From Minisyncoccota bacterium (lineage in GTDB: Bacteria > Patescibacteriota > Minisyncoccia > Phycocordibacterales > CSBR16-193), in NCBI GenBank assembly GCA_040905715.1, contig JBBDRA010000002.1, positions 3,746 to 67,745 of the forward strand: DNA of 64,000 nt, written 5' to 3'. The notes beneath the pieces are model-generated. The model ran no database searches. It saw only the letters and a list, made by a program, of their open reading frames with translations, and was not told where the DNA came from. Positions 1,109-30,184 of this stretch are shown here, piece after piece; within the stretch, counting starts at the first letter, position 1, and every line of letters begins with the position of its first letter. Made by a program: the position numbers and the translations under genes.

Positions 1109-2185
1109 TTAGAACGTAAACGCGTCTCGAATAAGTGACACGTCGACAGTGTCAATTTTCTGGTCGCTATTGACGTCTAGATTGTGCTCATCAGACAGTT
1201 CATCAAAACCGGTGAACCGCTCTCGGACAGCGTCCAAAAGGATCTCCCGAACACTGTCTTGATCCTCTTCTGAGAGTGAGTCAAAGTCAGTGATCAAGCC
1301 TACGTCTACAATGTTGACCTTTCCGTCTTCGTTAAGGTCATAGTCCATCTCCGGCTGATCAGGATCGAGGTTAAAACCGGTCTGATTGTCTCTGATCTCT
1401 TGGGCGATGGCGTCCTCGATCTCAGAGTCGGATATGTCTTCTTCCTGATCTTCTTCATCAGCGTCATCGTTGTCTTCATTTGTTGCTTCATCTTCATCAT
1501 CATTATTATTCGATGATGTTGTAGAGGCATCCTCTACATCCTCTTTTTCGTTATCTTCTTCGTCATTTGTTGACGTTGCTGTGTCATCGCTGTCATCATC
1601 GTTATTTTCCGACGATGCCGTCTCGCGAAGACAGGTTGCTTGAGCAAGAGCGGCGCGCGTACGCGGACCGATCTGACCAAAGCCGGTTGTTTCAGGAGAA
1701 CCGCTGTCGACAATGCCTTTGGCCTGCTGGAACTTCTGCACTGCCTCTTCGGTTATCGGACCGAAGTATCCGGTCGCTTCCGGATACTCAAAGAATCCCT
1801 GCTCTTTGAGTGATTTCTGAACCTGCTCGACTGTGGTTCCTGCATCACCTGCTCGAAGTGTTCGACCAAGCTCCAAGCACTGCATTACTTGTTTAGCCCG
1901 ATCGCTCGCTTGCTCAGGCAAACGGTCACCGAAACTTGGTGGGCCGGCAGCACCAGGTCGGTTACCCGCACCTTCTTGATCACTGGAGGTGGCATTTTCT
2001 TCCTCATCCGTTTCTTTATTCTGCCGCAACTCCTTGATCTGCTGTTGGATCTGAGTTATTTGATTCCGCAGCTGTTCGATCTGGCCGCTATTGCCCTGTT
2101 GGGCCTGACCGACAACAGGCACACCAATCAGCATTGCAACAACTACCACAAGAGCAAGTTCGGAGAATGTTTTAAATGTACTCAT
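1109..2185 (-). CDS. secreted protein with N-terminal signal/TM, a coiled-coil and acidic low-complexity region, a putative peptidoglycan-binding domain and a C-terminal dockerin-like double Ca-binding repeat
   Basis: Hydrophobic N-terminus ELALVVVVAMLIGVPVVG. A PG_binding_1-like segment reads TVEQVQKSLKEQGFFEYPEATGYFGPITEEAVQKFQQAKGI. The C-terminus holds two repeats, DLNEDGKVNIVDVGLITDF and DVNSDQKIDTVDVSLIRDAF, which match the dockerin DxNxDGxVNxxD pattern. Confidence 0.6.
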   Translation of the reverse strand: MSTFKTFSELALVVVVAMLIGVPVVGQAQQGNSGQIEQLRNQITQIQQQIKELRQNKETDEEENATSSDQEGAGNRPGAAGPPSFGDRLPEQASDRAKQVMQCLELGRTLRAGDAGTTVEQVQKSLKEQGFFEYPEATGYFGPITEEAVQKFQQAKGIVDSGSPETTGFGQIGPRTRAALAQATCLRETASSENNDDDSDDTATSTNDEEDNEKEDVEDASTTSSNNNDDEDEATNEDNDDADEEDQEEDISDSEIEDAIAQEIRDNQTGFNLDPDQPEMDYDLNEDGKVNIVDVGLITDFDSLSEEDQDSVREILLDAVRERFTGFDELSDEHNLDVNSDQKIDTVDVSLIRDAFTF

Positions 2186-2586
2186 ACTATGTATGACAAA
2201 TTACCTCTTAATAAACACAGTAAAGGGGCACCCGCATAACGGATACCCCTTTCCATAAAACTTATTATACACCCCACCACATTTCTAACAAAGATAAATG
2301 TGGACAACTAATATACTGCTTCTATCGCAACACTGATCGGATAGTGTTCCGCTAGAGAAAATACCGACGAAGTTTGATTCCCGCTTCTTTTTCCTATAGT
2401 ATTTTCATATCAGTATGTTTGTGAAAGAAGGTCTTTCAGGACCGAACCTGCCTGCCGGCAGGCAGGTTCGGACGAAATGTTCCGCCCGAGGCGGACCGTT
2501 TCGCTCCTCACTTGCGCCCGTAAGAAAATCTTTCAAACACTGCGTTCCAAGAAAATACAAGCAAGCTTGAATTTTACTTCTCACTT

Positions 2587-2658
2587 GCGCCCGTAGCTCA
2601 ATGGTAGAGCGCGAAGCTTATACCTTCGTGGTTCCCGGTTCGAATCCAGGCGGGCGCA
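2587..2658 (+). tRNA. tRNA with anticodon UAU (putative tRNA-Ile decoding AUA)
   Basis: Folds by hand into a cloverleaf: 7-bp acceptor stem GCGCCCG/CGGGCGC, U8 A9, D-arm GCTC/GAGC, anticodon stem CGAAG/CTTCG with loop CTTATAC (U33, anticodon 34-36 = TAT), T-loop TTCGAAT and discriminator A. There is one C-A mismatch in the T-stem and CCA is not encoded. Confidence 0.7.
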
Positions 2659-2923
2659 CAAAATATGCGAAGCAGATTTTTGGTGTCTGCAAGGAGAGCA
2701 TTTCTGCTCTCCTGTCTGGATGAGAAAGGCGGAGCCATGTCGCACGGAGCGGAGCGAGTACGACGGGCGAGCCCGGCCAGGAGCCCACTTAGCGAATGAA
2801 GACCGAAGGGATGAGTGAGCTTAGTGAGCTGACGGCGAATCCAGGCGGGCGCACCAGACAATAATACAAAACAGCCTTGTGGTTAAACAGGGCTGTTTTT
2901 TGAAACTCTCATAAGACGATCAC

Positions 2924-4888
2924 CTACCCCACATGTCCTCCAACATGTTTAACGTCAGGCACTGCGTCCTCTTCTTTTTTCTTTACTTCAATACCATGGG
3001 CAACCAAGATCTCCTCGAACTCATCACGCTCGATCGTTTCAACTTCTATAAGACGATTGGTGATAACTTCGAGAACTTTTCGATGGTCCGTGAGGACCTG
3101 CTTTGCCTTATCATGAGCCTCGTTAATGATACGTGTCACCTCGGCATCAATTTTCGCATTCACTTCTTCCGAATACTCACTTCCTTCGTCCATACCGTAA
3201 TGAGGTTTGCCATCGTCCATATCATACGCAACCGGACCAAGTGTTTCCGACATACCGTACTTGGTCACCATTGCTCGCGCCGTAGCAGACAGAACCTGGA
3301 GGTCGTTCGATGCCCCGGTTGTAATATCACCGAACACCATTTGCTCGGCAACATATCCACCAAGCGACATCGAGATATCATCCAAAAATTGATTCTTTGA
3401 GTGAAGTCGTCTGTCTTCAAACGGTAACTTCAGCGTATAACCGGCAGCACGACCGCGTGAGATGATCGATATCTTGTGTACCGGATCAGTGTGCGGCAGC
3501 ACACTCGCAACAAGCGCGTGCCCTGCTTCGTGATAGGCCGTGATCTTTTTCTCACGCATCGAGAGAACATGGCTTCGCCGCTCCGGACCAAGCATCACCT
3601 TCTCGATCGAACGGATCAGATCAAACTGAGAGATGTGGTTACGGGTCTCTCGAGCAGCAAGGATCGCCGCTTCATTGACCAAGCTGTAAAGATCAGCACC
3701 GGAGAAACCGGGGGTTCGCTGTGCAATAACCTCGAAATCAACATCTTCGGCCAACGGCTTCTTCTGAGCGTGCACATTAAGGATCGCTTTTCGGTCGCTT
3801 TTGTCCGGCAGATCGATCGTAACTCGGCGATCGAAACGACCCGGGCGAAGTAATGCAGGGTCAAGCACGTCCGGTCGGTTCGTTGCAGCCATGACGATAA
3901 CTTTTTCATTTGGCTCAAACCCGTCCATCTCTACTAAGATCTGGTTGAGGGTTTGCTCCCGCTCGTCATTGCCACCACCCATTCCCGATCCACGCACCCG
4001 ACCAATAGCATCGATCTCATCCACAAAAATAATAGCCGGCGCAGCTTGCTTGGCCATCTTAAAGAGATCGCGTACTCGACTTGCTCCAACACCAACGAAC
4101 ATCTCAACAAACTCCGAACCAGAGATAGAGAAGAATGCTACGCCCGCCTCACCGGCAACAGCGCGGGCAAGCAAGGTTTTTCCGGTGCCCGGAGCACCCA
4201 TCAACATCACACCCTTGGGTATCTTTGCGCCGATCTTAAGAAACTTTTTCGGATTCTTCAGGAAGTCTACGATCTCAGACAACTCTTCTTTTGCCTCCTT
4301 CGCACCGGCCACATCTTTGAATCTGACTCGTTGTCCCTTGTCATCAGGGGAGGTCATACGCGCCTTTGACTGACCGAACGTGAATGCCTGCATCCCCGCT
4401 CCTTTCACTTGTCGCATAATAAACCAGAGAAAGATGACGATGAAAATAAGCGGGATCAAAAACGGCGCCAGGTTCATAAGCCAAAATCCAAGCCCGCCTT
4501 CCCGCTCTACTTCTATATCCACAACGGAAAGCTGCTCCGAAGAGATGTCGTAATTTCGAAATGTCTCGGAAAGCGCTGCGTCTGCTTCTTTCTGAGCGGT
4601 CTTCTTATCGCCATCGGCGTACTCAATAGCCAGGTCGTTCCCATCTATGGTAATGCCGGCGACCTGCCCGTCTCGTATGTCTTCCATGAGTTCAGAAATA
4701 GTGATCGATTCAGGCCCTTCTTGCTGATCGATCACGAACGAATACGCTGCGATAAGCAATACAAAGACCAGCAATGTCGTGAGTAAATTCACCCAAAACG
4801 GTCGTTTCGGTGCGCCGCTCCCCTTCATTGAGATCTTAACGTTTTTCTTGTCTCCCCCTTCATTATTGTCGTTTCCAAATAGTGCCAT
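2924..4888 (-). CDS. ftsH: ATP-dependent zinc metalloprotease FtsH
   Basis: N-terminal TM segments, AAA+ Walker [29 protein letters not shown], second region of homology, and zinc-binding HEAGHALV in the C-terminal M41 protease domain. Confidence 0.95.
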
Positions 4889-5519: not shown

Positions 5520-5970
5520 GGGGATGCCAGGCATCGACAGGGTTTGGCCTCTGGTATGTGCAAAGCAGAGGGTGCGAACTTCCTCTTAAATCCGCTCGCG
5601 TCTCTACGTGCAGACAAAACAGCACAAAAGGCAAAGTCTATCGTCTCACCATTCTTTGGTCAGAACGACTTTGCTTTCAGTTACGCTACAGCCTAACTCC
5701 GACGTCATGTCGGAGTCCCGACCTTCGCGTCGGGGCTGACGTCTACGATCTTGATATCTGATAGAGATCCGTAGGCGGTATAACCATCAGGTTCGGTTCA
5801 GCCAGTCGTCTCATGGTCGGACTTAAACAACGGGACTCGGTATCAGTAGATTTTGTCTATTTCATACTACTGATCACTTAAATCGCCTATTGGCGAATGG
5901 AGATAGACTACGCTTTGTAGACTCATATCAGACCACTCCTTGCACGTGGGTTCAACTCCCACCATCTCCA
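5520..5970 (+). ncRNA. ssrA: tmRNA (ssrA)
   Basis: 5' end GGGGATGCCAGGCATCGACAGGG matches the canonical GGGGNUG...UUCGACGGG. 3' end GTGGGTTCAACTCCCACCATCTCCA gives a T-arm plus an acceptor 3' strand CATCTCC that pairs with the 5' GGGGATG. It lies directly downstream of smpB. A candidate tag frame at 5610-5696 ends ...NDFAFSYATA-TAA. Confidence 0.85.
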
Positions 5971-5982
5971 CTCGACTCCGTA

Positions 5983-6013
5983 AACCCGCACTTTAGTAAA
6001 AGTGCGGGTTTTA
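5983..6013 (+). terminator. rho-independent terminator after tmRNA
   Basis: Hairpin AACCCGCACT-ttagtaaa-AGTGCGGGTT followed by TTTT. Confidence 0.6.
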
Positions 6014-6016
6014 CTT

Positions 6017-6066
6017 CGCTCGTGGCAAGCCACTCGACTCCGTAAACCCGACTAAGGAGTCGAGTG
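6017..6066 (+). repeat. direct repeat copy of tmRNA 3'-terminal sequence (CCACTCGACTCCGTAAACCCG) plus a hairpin
   Basis: 21 nt at 6030-6050 are identical to 5968-5988 at the tmRNA 3' end. They are followed by the inverted repeat CACTCGACTCC...GGAGTCGAGTG. Confidence 0.7.
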
Positions 6067-6105
6067 CCCTGAGCGAGGTGACGAGTCGAACGGGCCTGTT
6101 ACAAT

Positions 6106-6375
6106 ATGTTTATGTATTACATCTATATGGCACGAAATAAAACAAATTATCTTTACGTCGGTATGACCGACAATCCACACCGGCGACTTACGGAGCATAA
6201 CAACGGTAGCGGTTCCATCCATACTAAATCAGGAAGATTTTCCCTAGTTTTTATTGAAGAACACCAGACATTAGAGAAAGCCCGCCAGCGTGAAATACAA
6301 ATCAAAAAGTGGACGCGTGACAAAAAAGAGAAACTTATCACTCGATACAAACAAGGTCTCCCGACCAGACCATAG
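6106..6375 (+). CDS. small GIY-YIG nuclease family protein
   Basis: YIYMARNKTNYLYVGMTDNPHRRLTEHN contains the GIY...YIG core with the conserved Arg and Glu (GIY-YIG/URI domain). The gene is flanked by repeats of the tmRNA 3' end. Confidence 0.75.
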   Translation: MFMYYIYMARNKTNYLYVGMTDNPHRRLTEHNNGSGSIHTKSGRFSLVFIEEHQTLEKARQREIQIKKWTRDKKEKLITRYKQGLPTRP

Positions 6376-10158: not shown

Positions 10159-10596
10159 AGTAGATTTACTCCTTCAAATGATAAACATGACCACTATCGT
10201 TGCATGCTGTGCCCATCCGTCTTTCAAGCAATACGTAAGATCCTTACTATAAAGTAAAGATGGCTATTACTGACTTTTTATTACACTTCACTCAAAAAAC
10301 AACTGCCAAAAAAGATCTATTAGTACGTATTTCAAAACCGATCAGCACTCAAACAGCACACTGAAGTAAAGCAAAAGTAAAGATAGCGGCAACCATAAAA
10401 CCACGCTAAAAGCATGGACTATTCGACCGATAAACCTTAAGACAACAAACAAGGCACATTTAAAAAAACTCTTTATATAAGGCATATTTTCCCTTATATA
10501 ACACCTTGTCCCGTCAGAAACTATTGACATTCTTGCGCATAAAGGCACAATAGTAGAGTCTAAAACCCGCGAGGTTTTTTCATTTTCCCCCGGTGT

Positions 10597-11874
10597 ATGC
10601 CGTCTACTCCAGAAACAAATATCGTCCTTTTTGTAGGTCTCACTCCAGCATTGCTTGGACCTATTCAGGCACTCAAAAAGAAGAAGGGTGTGAATTATCG
10701 CTATGCGATCATTCACGACACAAAAACACCCACTCCGGAACAAAAGGAGGTTCTGGATGTTTTTGATATTGAGATCAAAACGAATTTTTCCTCACGAGAC
10801 ACACTCACCAAATCTCTTCAACCATATGAGCACGAACTCCTTGCGATCACTTCCCGCTCAGAATCCAATATCCCCTATTTTCAAAAAGTGATCCCGCACG
10901 TACCTTACCTCAGGACACCTACGACCGAATCACTAACGTGGGCAACAGAAAAACTGAAGATGCGCCAACAACTTAACTCATATGACAAGAACATTGGCCC
11001 GGCCTTCATGATTGTTCATGATTCAGCAAAAAAAACGATCAAGGAAATCGAGGAAAAAGTCGGCTTCCCTGTTGTTATAAAGCCTACGGGACTTGTTCGA
11101 GGTCTTTTGGTCACAGCGGCCTATCATCACGAAGAACTTGAAAAGGAGCTTAACCGGGTTTTCTGGAAAATAAATAAACTTCACCGTGACACAAACGGCC
11201 GCGGAGAGCCCTCTGTACTTGTGGAGCAACTTATGGACGGAGAAATGTACTCTGTCGACGCACACGTCACCTCACGTGGCACTATTCACTTTAATCCATT
11301 CGTACACGTTAAGACCGGTCGATCGATCGGGTTCGATGATTTCTTCTCGTACCAGCAGATAACACCGACCAGACTCAACAAGCAAAGTGTTGCTGATGCA
11401 CAAGAAGTTACCGAAAAAGCGATCAGGGCACTTGGTTTACGAAGCACCACGGCTCATGTTGAGCTCCTCAAAACCGAAGACGGTTGGAAAGTAATAGAGG
11501 TTGGCCCACGCATCGGCGGATTTCGCCATGTAATGTACAACCTTTCCTACGGGATCGATATCACTGAAAATGATATTAGAACACGTATTCCCCGCCCTAT
11601 CACTATCCCTCGAACGGTAAAAGGACATACTGCCCTTATTAAAATTTACGCACCGAAGGAAGGCGTTATCACCAAGATAACAGGCGCGAAAAAAGCACAG
11701 CAACTTAAATCATTCCATTCGATCAGTGTTCACAAACAAATTGGTGATCGAGCGTATTTCGCAAAAAATGGTGGTCGTGACATTTTCCATGTCACCTTCT
11801 TTAACAAGGACCGCCCCAAACTCCTGGCTGATATTCGACGATTCGAAAAGATGGTTGAGATCACCACCAAGTAA
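10597..11874 (+). CDS. ATP-grasp domain protein (putative amino-acid/peptide ligase)
   Basis: ATP-grasp fold signatures GFPVVIKPTGLVRG, LVEQLMDGEMYSVDAHV and AHVELLKTEDGWKVIEVGPRIGG. Confidence 0.6.
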   Translation: MPSTPETNIVLFVGLTPALLGPIQALKKKKGVNYRYAIIHDTKTPTPEQKEVLDVFDIEIKTNFSSRDTLTKSLQPYEHELLAITSRSESNIPYFQKVIPHVPYLRTPTTESLTWATEKLKMRQQLNSYDKNIGPAFMIVHDSAKKTIKEIEEKVGFPVVIKPTGLVRGLLVTAAYHHEELEKELNRVFWKINKLHRDTNGRGEPSVLVEQLMDGEMYSVDAHVTSRGTIHFNPFVHVKTGRSIGFDDFFSYQQITPTRLNKQSVADAQEVTEKAIRALGLRSTTAHVELLKTEDGWKVIEVGPRIGGFRHVMYNLSYGIDITENDIRTRIPRPITIPRTVKGHTALIKIYAPKEGVITKITGAKKAQQLKSFHSISVHKQIGDRAYFAKNGGRDIFHVTFFNKDRPKLLADIRRFEKMVEITTK

Positions 11875-14295: not shown

Positions 14296-15672
14296 CTAAA
14301 GATCAAGCGTGTACTTCTTCCCCTGCTGCGGGCAGATCGCTTTTACACCGATCTCGTCGTTGATACGTTGAGCAAGTACGCTTGAGGATTTTGGCTCTCC
14401 CATTGCCAGAAAAACCGTTTCGAGCGTTTCGGCTGCTGAATCAACAAAGTCCAGCAACTGGTCCTGGTCAGCATGTGATGAGTAGCCGCCGATCTTCTCT
14501 ATTCTTGCTCGAACAGGAATTCGCTGATCGAATATCTCAACCTCTTTCGCCCCTTCTTCGATCTGCCGACCAAGCGTACCGGCAGCTTGGTACCCGACCA
14601 GAAGCAGCGTACTGTTCGGATCCGGCAGGTAGTCAAGCTCGTGGTGGAGCACGCGTCCGCCGGTCGACATACCTGAGCCTGCGATAATTATCTTTGGGTT
14701 CGGTGCATCCTCTATGGCTTTTGATTCAGGGACCCGTTCGGTCATCTTAAGATTTGGAAACGAGAACGCATCATCGCCGTCAGCAATATCACCTTGTATC
14801 TCATCATTATAGGGCTTCACGATACTACGATAGATCTCAGTCAACTTGATCGCCAACGGAGAGTCAAGAAATACTCGTACTGACGGAATTATGTTTTCAC
14901 CGATCATGTGATTTAGCTCATGCAAAACGATCTGAGTACGCGCGAGCGAGAACGCCGGTATAACCAACGTTCCACCCCGTTCTATACTTTCTTTAACGAT
15001 CCGGCGGAACTTCTCATCCCTCTCACTCGCCGACTCATGTTGCCGATCGCCATACACACTGTCCATAACCAAGTAATTGGTACCGGGAATCTTTTCAGCA
15101 TCTCTCAAAAGCGGAGACGGGGAATTACCGAGATCGTCGGCAAACACTAGCTTCTTCTGCCCTGTCTTACCCTCAAGCGTAAACTCAACAAGAGCCGAGC
15201 CAATAATATGCCCGGCGTCCTTGAATTGAACAGACAAGCCATCTGCAAGTAAATGTGGCTCGTGATACCTAAGATCCTGCCACTGGGAGAGAGCGCGAGC
15301 CACGTCATTTTTCTCATACAGAGGCGCCGTGCCGTCGTCCTTTTGCTTATACGCCATAATACCGAGCGCGTCCTCGTACATTATCTCAACAATACGTTTC
15401 GTGATCCCGGTTGAGTAGATAGTGCCACGAAAGCCATCCCGTACAAGCTTTGGAATGCGCCCGATGTGATCGATGTGAGCATGGCTGACGAACAGCGCGT
15501 CAACAGATGCCGGCTCATACGCAAACGGCTCGCGATTGAGCTGGTCCGCTTCTCTGCTACCTTGAACAAGCCCACAATCAACAAGCACACTAAAATCTCC
15601 ATACTCAAGCAAAAAGTTAGCGCCAGTAACATGCTCAACGCCGCTATAGAATGTCAGTGTCGCCTGGTTCAT
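14296..15672 (-). CDS. rnj: ribonuclease J (beta-CASP metallo-beta-lactamase RNase)
   Basis: MBL motif VSHAHIDHIGRIP with a downstream beta-CASP region. Start chosen at 15672 (MNQATLTFYSG...); the open frame extends to 15729. Confidence 0.8.
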   Translation of the reverse strand: MNQATLTFYSGVEHVTGANFLLEYGDFSVLVDCGLVQGSREADQLNREPFAYEPASVDALFVSHAHIDHIGRIPKLVRDGFRGTIYSTGITKRIVEIMYEDALGIMAYKQKDDGTAPLYEKNDVARALSQWQDLRYHEPHLLADGLSVQFKDAGHIIGSALVEFTLEGKTGQKKLVFADDLGNSPSPLLRDAEKIPGTNYLVMDSVYGDRQHESASERDEKFRRIVKESIERGGTLVIPAFSLARTQIVLHELNHMIGENIIPSVRVFLDSPLAIKLTEIYRSIVKPYNDEIQGDIADGDDAFSFPNLKMTERVPESKAIEDAPNPKIIIAGSGMSTGGRVLHHELDYLPDPNSTLLLVGYQAAGTLGRQIEEGAKEVEIFDQRIPVRARIEKIGGYSSHADQDQLLDFVDSAAETLETVFLAMGEPKSSSVLAQRINDEIGVKAICPQQGKKYTLDL

Positions 15673-29904: not shown

Positions 29905-30001
29905 GAGAGCAAGCTTTGCTTACTCTAACAAGTGAGGAGCGAAACGGGAATGCGTCAGCATTCACATTTCGTCCGAACGCAGTTAGAGCAAGCTTTGCTT
30001 A
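29905..30001 (-). repeat. structured intergenic element, short variant of family R, bounded by an 18-nt direct repeat AGAGCAAGCTTTGCTTAC
   Basis: Direct repeats at 29905-29922 and 29984-30001. The core ACAAGTGAGGAGCGAAACGGGAATGCGTCAGCATTC resembles the 5' part of the 31352 and 37183 elements. The second repeat copy overlaps the rpsN stop codon. Confidence 0.55.
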
Positions 30002-30184
30002 CCAACTTGCTTTCTTAATACCGGGCACTTCACCGCGGTTCGCTCTCTCACGAAAGCAGATGCGGCACAATCCAAAGTCACGCATGTACCCGCGAACTCG
30101 ACCGCACAAAACACATCGTCGAATTGTTCGAGTTGAGTATTTTGGCGTCTTTTTTGATTTTGCGATGAGTGCTTTACGTGCCAT
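29999..30184 (-). CDS. rpsN: ribosomal protein S14 (zinc-ribbon type Z)
   Basis: 61 aa with [20 protein letters not shown]. Confidence 0.9.

Follow-up and report, generated by a model that had tools for sequence, protein, structure and literature searches.

The stretch of DNA analyzed here (64,000 nucleotides, positions 3,746–67,745 of contig JBBDRA010000002.1 in the Minisyncoccota assembly GCA_040905715.1; hereafter the window) contains a single tRNA gene, and fragments of both ends of this gene are repeated in its immediate surroundings. ARAGORN identified it as a tRNA-Ile with anticodon TAT at 2587–2659, and positions 2587–2658 belong to the Rfam tRNA family (RF00005), matching it with 66.6 bits against a threshold of 29. 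The anticodon loop reads CTTATAC (2617–2623, with the anticodon itself at 2619–2621), and on these points both programs agreed with a first-pass annotation of the same DNA. That annotation had also noticed the repeated fragments and had read them as the pattern left by integrase-mediated insertion and excision. Our subject is this tRNA gene, the non-coding insert behind it, and the element family to which the insert belongs.

The tRNA gene and its 3′ insert

The 3′ repeat consists of 19 nt (CGAATCCAGGCGGGCGCAC) present exactly at 2641–2659 and 2836–2854 (BLAST against the whole window, E = 1.3e-4), and the segment between the two copies measures 176 bp and holds only short, unconvincing open reading frames (ORFs). 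The first-pass annotation had rightly recognized a repeat here but gave it 18 nt, a distal copy at 2838–2855 and an enclosed segment of 179 bp. From the tRNA to the convergent ftsH gene, the features are as follows.

2587–2658, plus strand: tRNA-Ile(UAU), positions 1 to A73 (ARAGORN; Rfam tRNA)
2641–2659, plus strand: proximal repeat copy, tRNA C56 to C74, part of the intact tRNA (repeat search, 100% identity)
2660–2710, plus strand: insert spacer, made up of an A-run and then, at 2692–2713, the small hairpin AGGAGAGC/GCTCTCCT (read from the sequence)
2711–2721, plus strand: S′, inverted target copy CCTGTCTGGAT (alignment to covariance model R1; minimum-free-energy (MFE) fold of 2709–2856)
2722–2835, plus strand: conserved module in its long-P3 variant, comprising GAGAAAGGCGGAG, the P2 hairpin, CGAGCCCGG, a long P3 hairpin and GCTGACGG
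2836–2856, plus strand: distal repeat copy (S), encoding A73-C-C-A (repeat search; Logan contig L002)
2868–2905, unstranded: hairpin and T-run between the distal copy and ftsH (inverted repeat with 13-nt arms, 92% complementary)

The intact tRNA does not encode CCA: A73 is followed by C-A-A-A, and the 3′ end reads ...GCGCACAAAA. The distal copy reads ...GCGCACCA and runs on as CA, giving a full ACCA end, after which come the hairpin and T-run. The first-pass annotation had overlooked both the ACCA end and the hairpin at 2868–2905, as well as the continuation of the intact tRNA as ACAAAA. We conclude that the original 3′ end of the tRNA gene, now displaced, is most likely what the distal copy represents, and that the hairpin is probably the terminator the gene first had; the hairpin was absent from the plus-strand list of a consensus terminator scan. 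Within the insert, the 11-nt S′ segment pairs with ATCCAGGCGGG at 2840–2850, departing from the perfect complement by two C-to-T changes that both leave G·U pairs. Because a second metagenome-assembled genome (MAG) of the same species (GCA_040881535.1, locus L084) is 100% identical over window positions 2100–3000, and because Logan contig L002 reads across the point where the insert meets the distal copy, the arrangement is real and not an artefact of assembly.

A family of structured elements behind tRNA and tmRNA genes

We collected the closest relatives through their FtsH homologues, which placed the window among the Patescibacteria/Paceibacterota, with ~70% FtsH identity to species representatives. 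Many of these relatives likewise have, 100–220 nt downstream of the tRNA, a direct repeat of its T-loop-to-3′-end part, mostly with an inverted copy in between. A family pattern built from conserved blocks and run on a metagenome collection returned at least 134 instances. Among the matches listed, 93 of 134 lie on the same strand within 150 nt behind a tRNA or transfer-messenger RNA (tmRNA) gene, with a modal distance of 60–69 nt; 36 kinds of tRNA or tmRNA gene are occupied, and the modal exact direct repeat is 19 nt from C56, the same as in the window.

Read on the tRNA strand, which carries the element wherever a neighboring tRNA or tmRNA gene was identified, members share one order: the tRNA, a spacer hairpin (often a terminator, and the counterpart of the spacer in the window), an inverted copy running roughly from position 72 down to 54–56, the block AGRCGSAG with hairpin P2, the block CGAGYCGGGGU with hairpin P3, which ends in GUGAC, and finally a direct tRNA copy that starts at T-loop C56. 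Many copies sit behind a strong terminator. From 46 aligned members we derived a structure using RNAalifold and manual extension, and built from it the covariance model R1. This model found 30 copies in 82 ftsH-anchored loci and at least 111 in 80 metagenome loci, which brings the total to more than 140 copies of similar small size, rarely at non-tRNA sites.

The structure is a three-way junction in which P1, formed by the inverted and direct copies, is followed by the strand AAA, P1b/P2, the strand GGG, and P3 closing directly on P1. Of the alignment cells 84% were paired; shuffles gave 68%, and sliding the partners gave no more than 46%. The covariation score of 0.486 (versus 0.20) was reached by none of 500 shuffles. 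The GRC/GYC pair switches between G-C and A-U (27:19 sequences) with no exceptions, and one G·U pair is invariant in 46 of 46 sequences. The mean MFE was −34.3 kcal/mol for the tRNA strand and −26.4 kcal/mol for its complement. Because both arms copy the insertion site, P1 reproduces the acceptor/T-stem duplex of the adjacent tRNA.

R1 matched window positions 2711–2851 over its full length (model positions 1–118; 31.2 bits, E ~2.9e-8), the only non-trivial match in the 64 kb, and an MFE fold of the window sequence alone gave the same three-way junction. Positions 2747–2842 are 82% identical to the insert behind the tmRNA gene of a close relative (L085), which ends in a 19-nt repeat of C56–C74 of its own tmRNA. 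The motif GATGAGAAAGGCGGAG (window 2719–2734) occurs five times in the collected loci, four times 48–63 nt behind a tRNA-Ser, tmRNA or tRNA-Ile gene and once in L081, where two tandem copies follow a tmRNA gene and the motif belongs to the second. As in other family members, the window copy lies on the same strand behind a tRNA, with a direct copy from C56 and an inverted copy upstream of it. We conclude that the insert is a complete though divergent copy of a family of ~100–250-bp non-coding elements.

This family is not in Rfam 15, whose models, those of self-cleaving ribozymes and group I/II introns included, returned nothing credible for window 2000–3400 at E up to 10 (only noise) or around the canonical members in L081 at E up to 5. 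Nor was a description found in a literature search on tRNA-linked elements in Patescibacteria, whose only relevant result was a preprint on group I introns. Hammerhead and twister-type ribozymes and the kink-turn were rejected on inspection by eye: the junction strands (AAA, GGG and none) are unfit for a hammerhead core, and the GSAG/GA loop is not canonical for a kink-turn. Also judged by eye, with no attC model, the junctions ..TCGAA/AGRCG and GUGAC/CGAA lack the R″ (RYYYAAC) and R′ (GTTRRRY) boxes of an integron attC site. A miniature inverted-repeat transposable element (MITE) would require terminal inverted repeats made of element sequence and a short, fixed duplication; here it is target sequence that forms the inverted arms, and duplication lengths lie between 19 and 77 nt. 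A scan of viral contigs with the family pattern gave a single chance match, inside a coding region.

Several other arrangements resemble the family in part. At least three further module types without an R1 match (A, B and D) also combine an inverted copy, a structured core and a direct copy from the T loop: type A in L025 (6290–6400), L072, L071 and L051; type B, which has a hairpin with an anticodon-like CUGUAAG loop, in L022, L065, L011 and L056; and type D in L089, behind tRNA-Lys. In L083, a relative with 88% FtsH identity, a tRNA-Ile block that is inverted relative to ftsH (3720–4230) has three repeats of ~150–300 bp behind it, and in each of them a bidirectional terminator comes first, together with GGCGGAGC. 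R1 matches the first repeat alone (3752–3876), which has the R1-like core GAGCCGGGGTCGAG...CGTGAC, and the T-loop direct repeat is absent from all three. In L069 (16525–17784) an R1 module has a tRNA-Ser-type direct repeat that includes CCA, with XRE-like and ImmA-like ORFs (sequence motif only) and a GIY-YIG-like ORF upstream; no tRNA-Ser was found within 1.5 kb of it, and the module may mark where a larger island ends, the rest of which would extend past the edge of the locus.

AUA decoding and the 5′ leader duplication

The tRNA itself is conserved in the relatives. When 53 distinct tRNA-Ile sequences were aligned they gave a perfect cloverleaf, 16 of whose 21 pairs had compensatory changes; neither the CTTATA anticodon loop nor A73 varied, so that the UAU anticodon, A37 and discriminator A73 of a tRNA-Ile2(UAU) are conserved in the lineage. 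A tRNA-Ile(TAT) lies within a few kilobases of ftsH in 67 of the 80 ftsH loci fetched from relatives, often immediately behind ftsH and mostly with smpB and the tmRNA gene nearby. Because of this recurrence and the covariation of the cloverleaf, the gene is no one-off: to judge from these alignments, the tRNA appears to be the lineage-wide AUA decoder, standard in the class and usually encoded beside ftsH, and 2587–2658 appears to be a functional AUA-decoding tRNA-Ile(UAU) of a Paceibacterota bacterium. The first-pass annotation had called a genomic UAU uncommon, which is wrong for this lineage, and had taken it to imply a different strategy for decoding AUA, which our results support in that a genomic UAU would imply that AUA is read without lysidine. 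ATA codons occur at 11 per 1000 codons in 37 window ORFs and make up 18% of their Ile codons, and a decoder of AUA is therefore needed. In other bacteria tilS-hpt-ftsH is a common operon, and in many of them tilS occupies the spot beside ftsH. Neither the 64-kb window nor the ftsH loci of 82 relatives, 1.14 Mb in total, contained an ORF with a tilS-like PP-loop (SGGxDS).

Decoding of AUA by a UAU anticodon, with no TilS involved, has been described in Mycoplasma mobile and also in Bifidobacterium and Neorickettsia (Taniguchi et al., 2013, PMC3575796). Our literature search found no report on UAU-based AUA decoding, lysidine or tilS in Patescibacteria. The window tRNA resembles the M. mobile tRNA-Ile2(UAU) in that a genomic UAU would serve AUA and a tilS-like gene was not seen where this was checkable; it differs in belonging to another phylum, and in being apparently class-wide and syntenic with ftsH. 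A different oddity concerns serine: a tRNA-Ser with anticodon ACT is encoded near tRNA-Ser(GCT) in five loci, adjacent and divergent in L022, L051, L067 and L079 and ~2.3 kb apart on the same strand in L081 (tRNA-Ser(ACT) at 15234–15323). A genomic A34 is odd for an AGY-reading tRNA-Ser.

The 5′ end of the tRNA-Ile gene is also repeated, in the following units.

2425–2521, plus strand: leader unit 1, comprising a 30-nt palindrome, GTTCGGACGAAATGT-hairpin-CCGTTTCGCTCCTCACTTG, and CGCCCGT, which copies tRNA positions 2–8
2522–2586, plus strand: leader unit 2, a degenerate copy with compensatory stem changes that abuts the tRNA 5′ end
29929–29982, minus strand: third leader-hairpin copy, in the rpsN-rpsH spacer (BLAST; fold −20.1 kcal/mol, z = −4.6)

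The repeat that the first-pass annotation had reported ~75 bp upstream is real; it comprises 16 exact nucleotides (CTCACTTGCGCCCGTA) at 2507–2522 and 2580–2595, 73 nt apart (BLAST against the window, E = 0.008), of which 7 nt are leader and the remainder tRNA positions 1–9, and it lies within a 24-nt match of 88% identity (2499–2522 versus 2572–2595). The larger pattern is one of tandem copies (2425–2521 and 2522–2594) of a unit composed of AAGAARRTCTTTCA ... GTTCGGACGAAATGT-hairpin-CCGTTTCGCTCCTCACTTG, each copy being followed by CGCCCGT, which together with the final G of the unit forms GCGCCCGT, tRNA positions 1–8. Unit 1 folds with −24.7 kcal/mol (z = −3.9), and unit 2 keeps the fold topology with a stability no better than that of shuffled sequence. 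Units 1 and 3 share the same bulged hairpin with wholly different inner stems. Because L083 has both an orthologue of unit 2 upstream of its tRNA (91% identity over window 2508–2661) and a degenerate 5′ fragment GCGCCTGTAGG at the matching relative place, the duplication predates the split of the species. The 5′ repeat is thus an older tandem duplication of a ~73–97-nt hairpin leader unit that carried tRNA positions 1–9 along. This duplication, shared in degenerate form with L083, is independent of the 3′ insertion and not, as the first-pass annotation had it, part of an integrase pattern.

Similar hairpins occur elsewhere. The leader unit copy between the S14 and S8 genes (rpsN-rpsH spacer, 29905–30005, minus strand) has a repeated GTAAGCAAAGCTTGCTCT on its flanks, and the 30-nt palindrome at 2442–2471 is perfect (CCGAACCTGCCTGCCGGCAGGCAGGTTCGG). 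Comparable CCTGCC..GGCAGG hairpins lie beside tRNA-Ile in L061, L071, L018, L044 and L060; in L061 a similar hairpin lies within the D-arm of a pseudo-5′-half, where L069 has a different GC-rich hairpin. These hairpins look like a family of repetitive extragenic palindromic (REP)-like repeats.

Two further kinds of duplication were seen at RNA genes. Behind the tmRNA gene of the window (5520–5973), a 21-nt segment (CCACTCGACTCCGTAAACCCG) that starts with the terminal CCA recurs 62 nt downstream at 6030–6050 and is followed by an inverted copy at 6053–6071 and a small GIY-YIG ORF (6106–6375); no R1 module is present in this duplication of the tmRNA end (5968–6071, direct and inverted). Nested tRNA-Ile loci (L051 at 10250–10560, L053 at 10540–10830, L009, L061 and L066) contain, in order, a tRNA-Ile 5′ half (positions 1–38), a ~45-nt conserved structured insert (GGCAGUGA..hairpin..GAUCGAACC), a complete tRNA-Ile(UAU), ~15 nt, and a 3′ half (positions 35–75) with compensatory changes in the T stem. 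Each looks like a tRNA gene whose anticodon loop has been split by a small element bringing along a complete tRNA copy of its own.

Insertion at the T loop and its alternatives

We consider the locus as a whole to be best explained, with a probability of roughly 70%, by an AUA-decoding tRNA gene, a T-loop element belonging to a large family, and a separate 5′ duplication. On this explanation a ~195-bp non-coding element has inserted in the T loop between T55 and C56, contributing on the tRNA strand a copy of positions 56–74, the spacer hairpin, S′ and the three-way-junction module. The tRNA gene stays intact because the element's own copy of positions 56–74 completes it, and the original 3′ end, with its CCA and terminator, has moved 195 bp downstream. 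The family is a large one of Patescibacteria, and the great majority of its members sit behind a tRNA or tmRNA gene at just this place. The data show the tRNA, the insertion, the 5′ duplication and the family membership, whereas the mobility of the element is inferred. With more reserve, and at somewhat less than even odds, we suggest that the insert represents an undescribed class of mobile structured element, able to enter virtually every kind of tRNA or tmRNA gene at its T loop and to have its target copied into both strands of its closing helix. Our leading guess at the chemistry is that a trans-acting enzyme would make a staggered cut of 19–77 nt and that the inverted arm would then arise as the folded module is copied by fold-back; alternatively, recombination might occur at a folded hairpin site, as with CTX-phi or integron attC.

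The distribution of the element suggests that it is probably mobile. In the ftsH loci, an unbiased sample, the downstream repeat is carried by ~18% of tRNA-Ile, 12% of tmRNA and 28% of tRNA-Ser(GCU) genes, and L083 and L085, the closest relatives, have no insert at tRNA-Ile. Tandem arrays, alternation of tRNAs and elements, and truncated copies all occur. In L128 the element occupies a non-tRNA site, where a zinc-ribbon ORF has its 3′ end. A direct repeat of 77 nt (95% identity) stands on either side of it there, and the inverted arm is complementary to the opening 11 nt of the repeat; in L044 the arms derive from the tRNA end plus trailer. The arms are thus built from the target, whatever the target is, and a pre-formed attP core therefore cannot explain them. 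Some modules lie at the far end of 1–5-kb cargo islands between the tRNA and the module, with cargo that includes DUF3800, MerR and HTH proteins (Pfam) as well as methyltransferases, ATPases and XRE/ImmA-like proteins (sequence motif only); no shared enzyme was found among the ORFs of these islands.

A number of observations weigh against this explanation or parts of it. The T-stem pair 2636/2648 of the window tRNA is a C·A mismatch where L085 has T-A, and a broken pair at this place is unique to the window tRNA among the 53 aligned relatives; because the tRNA-Ile of L083 has the same sequence, the mismatch is not a sequencing error. The window copy of the element is divergent, scoring 31 bits compared with 45–115 bits in typical members, and its P3 ends in GCTGACGG instead of GUGAC; it may be decaying. 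Orthologous sites of which one is cleanly empty and the other filled were sought without success (L016 versus L081 and L089 versus L112 were compared, and each member has some element or truncated copy), so that the insertion boundaries come from the repeats only. No recombinase, reverse transcriptase or HUH nuclease was associated with the elements. Finally, the structural conservation and the restriction to one strand could equally reflect an RNA that benefits the host and not a selfish element.

Known systems each share some of these features. Integrase islands reportedly occupy the T-loop sublocation of tRNA and tmRNA genes and have integrase-less derivatives (cis-mobilizable elements, CIMEs) (Williams, 2002; Pavlovic et al., 2004); islands at ssrA have been described in Dehalococcoides (PMC3146451). 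Like these, the element has a repeat from T loop to 3′ end, a replacement 3′ end, a displaced original end with its terminator, tandem arrays and, in some cases, cargo islands; unlike them, it is a gene-less 100–250-bp sequence with a three-way-junction module and an inverted target copy, its arms match the gene in front, and its duplication ranges from 19 to 77 nt. The CTX-phi attP(+) hairpin and the integron attC are folded single-strand recombination sites. They resemble the element in having inverted, target-like sequences ~90 nt apart that fold into a target-mimicking hairpin, in that only one strand folds well, and in cassette-like arrays, whereas the element has no R″/R′ consensus boxes and no link to IntI or Xer, and its stem is copied from each target. 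Retroelements without long terminal repeats insert by target priming, and Neurospora retroplasmid integrations are linked to tRNA. A precise 3′ junction with a variable and sometimes long duplication is common to these and the element, and template switching could invert segments; however, no reverse transcriptase was found near the element. CCA is present in 11 of 49 distal copies versus a background of 16%, and this lack of enrichment speaks against mature tRNA having been reverse-transcribed as the source. Group I introns found within patescibacterial tRNA genes (bioRxiv 10.1101/2025.07.03.662931) are likewise non-coding, structured and inserted into tRNA genes in this phylum. They differ in breaking up the gene at its anticodon loop and in being recognized by the intron models of Rfam; the element, placed at the T loop or beyond it, keeps the tRNA intact and has no Rfam match.

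The strongest rival, which we nonetheless consider unlikely, is that the insert is a putative host RNA gene or processing element whose P1 mimics the acceptor/T minihelix, a companion RNA, co-transcribed or separately transcribed, that would act in tRNA maturation or quality control or as a decoy. The strong covariation, the conserved junction nucleotides, the invariant G·U pair and the better fold of the tRNA strand would all suit an RNA, as would its position on that strand wherever a neighboring gene was identified, its alternation with tRNAs in clusters where terminators do not intervene, and the fact that P1 reproduces the acceptor and T-stem duplex. A host gene would hardly be carried by only ~10–30% of orthologous genes, or occur in tandem multi-copy arrays, as truncated copies and as several unrelated module types at the same site; in addition, one copy is found at a protein-coding 3′ end and many lie behind a strong terminator.

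A still less probable reading is the integrase island of the first-pass annotation, in which the repeats would be the attL/attR scars of a prophage or an integrative and conjugative element (ICE), mostly deleted or excised with 176 bp left behind. What stands from it is foreign DNA at a T-loop-to-3′-end position, the classical integrase sublocation, with the original 3′ end, its CCA and its terminator displaced downstream. Genuine integrase islands do exist at Patescibacteria tRNAs: in L207 an ordinary element has upstream of it a separate island that encodes an integrase (Phage_integrase, Pfam E = 5e-30) and is bounded by a 45-nt repeat reaching from anticodon loop to 3′ end. The modules at the far end of 1–5-kb cargo islands would also fit an island scar. 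Yet the supposed remnant is a complete member of a family with a conserved, covarying ~90–120-nt module, of which there are more than 140 instances of similar small size, and an att scar leaves the inverted target copy unexplained. The module occurs at 36 tRNA and tmRNA genes with arms that fit the local gene each time, which is impossible for an attP core, and at a non-tRNA site with a 77-nt duplication. Integrases are almost absent nearby: a jackhmmer search started from the L207 integrase found four tyrosine recombinase ORFs in 2 Mb of element-bearing loci, the one examined (L207) being linked to the separate repeat just described, and no integrase or remnant was found in or next to the 176 bp of the window. 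Chance repeats or mis-assembly of a metagenome bin, to which the MAG origin of the sequence and a Logan contig that stops inside the insert (window 2799) might point, can be dismissed given 901 bp of identity in a second MAG, the E value of 1e-4 for the 19-mer and the fit of the insert to an independently built family model.

If our reading of the element is correct, each copy would be a mimic of the acceptor/T minihelix of its neighboring tRNA, set under a conserved three-way junction, which would imply either a new insertion chemistry (target-primed, by fold-back synthesis or by folded-hairpin recombination) or an RNA that is processed like the top half of a tRNA. A very abundant, strongly covarying non-coding element is tied to the 3′ ends of tRNA and tmRNA genes, and its target-derived hairpin arms call for a mechanism outside integrases, MITEs and introns. 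The locus also carries a warning, in that repeats of tRNA fragments in these genomes are usually not integrase scars. For the tRNA, a whole class within the Patescibacteria apparently reads AUA with a genomic UAU tRNA-Ile encoded next to ftsH, and lysidine-independent decoding thereby becomes testable in a major uncultured lineage.

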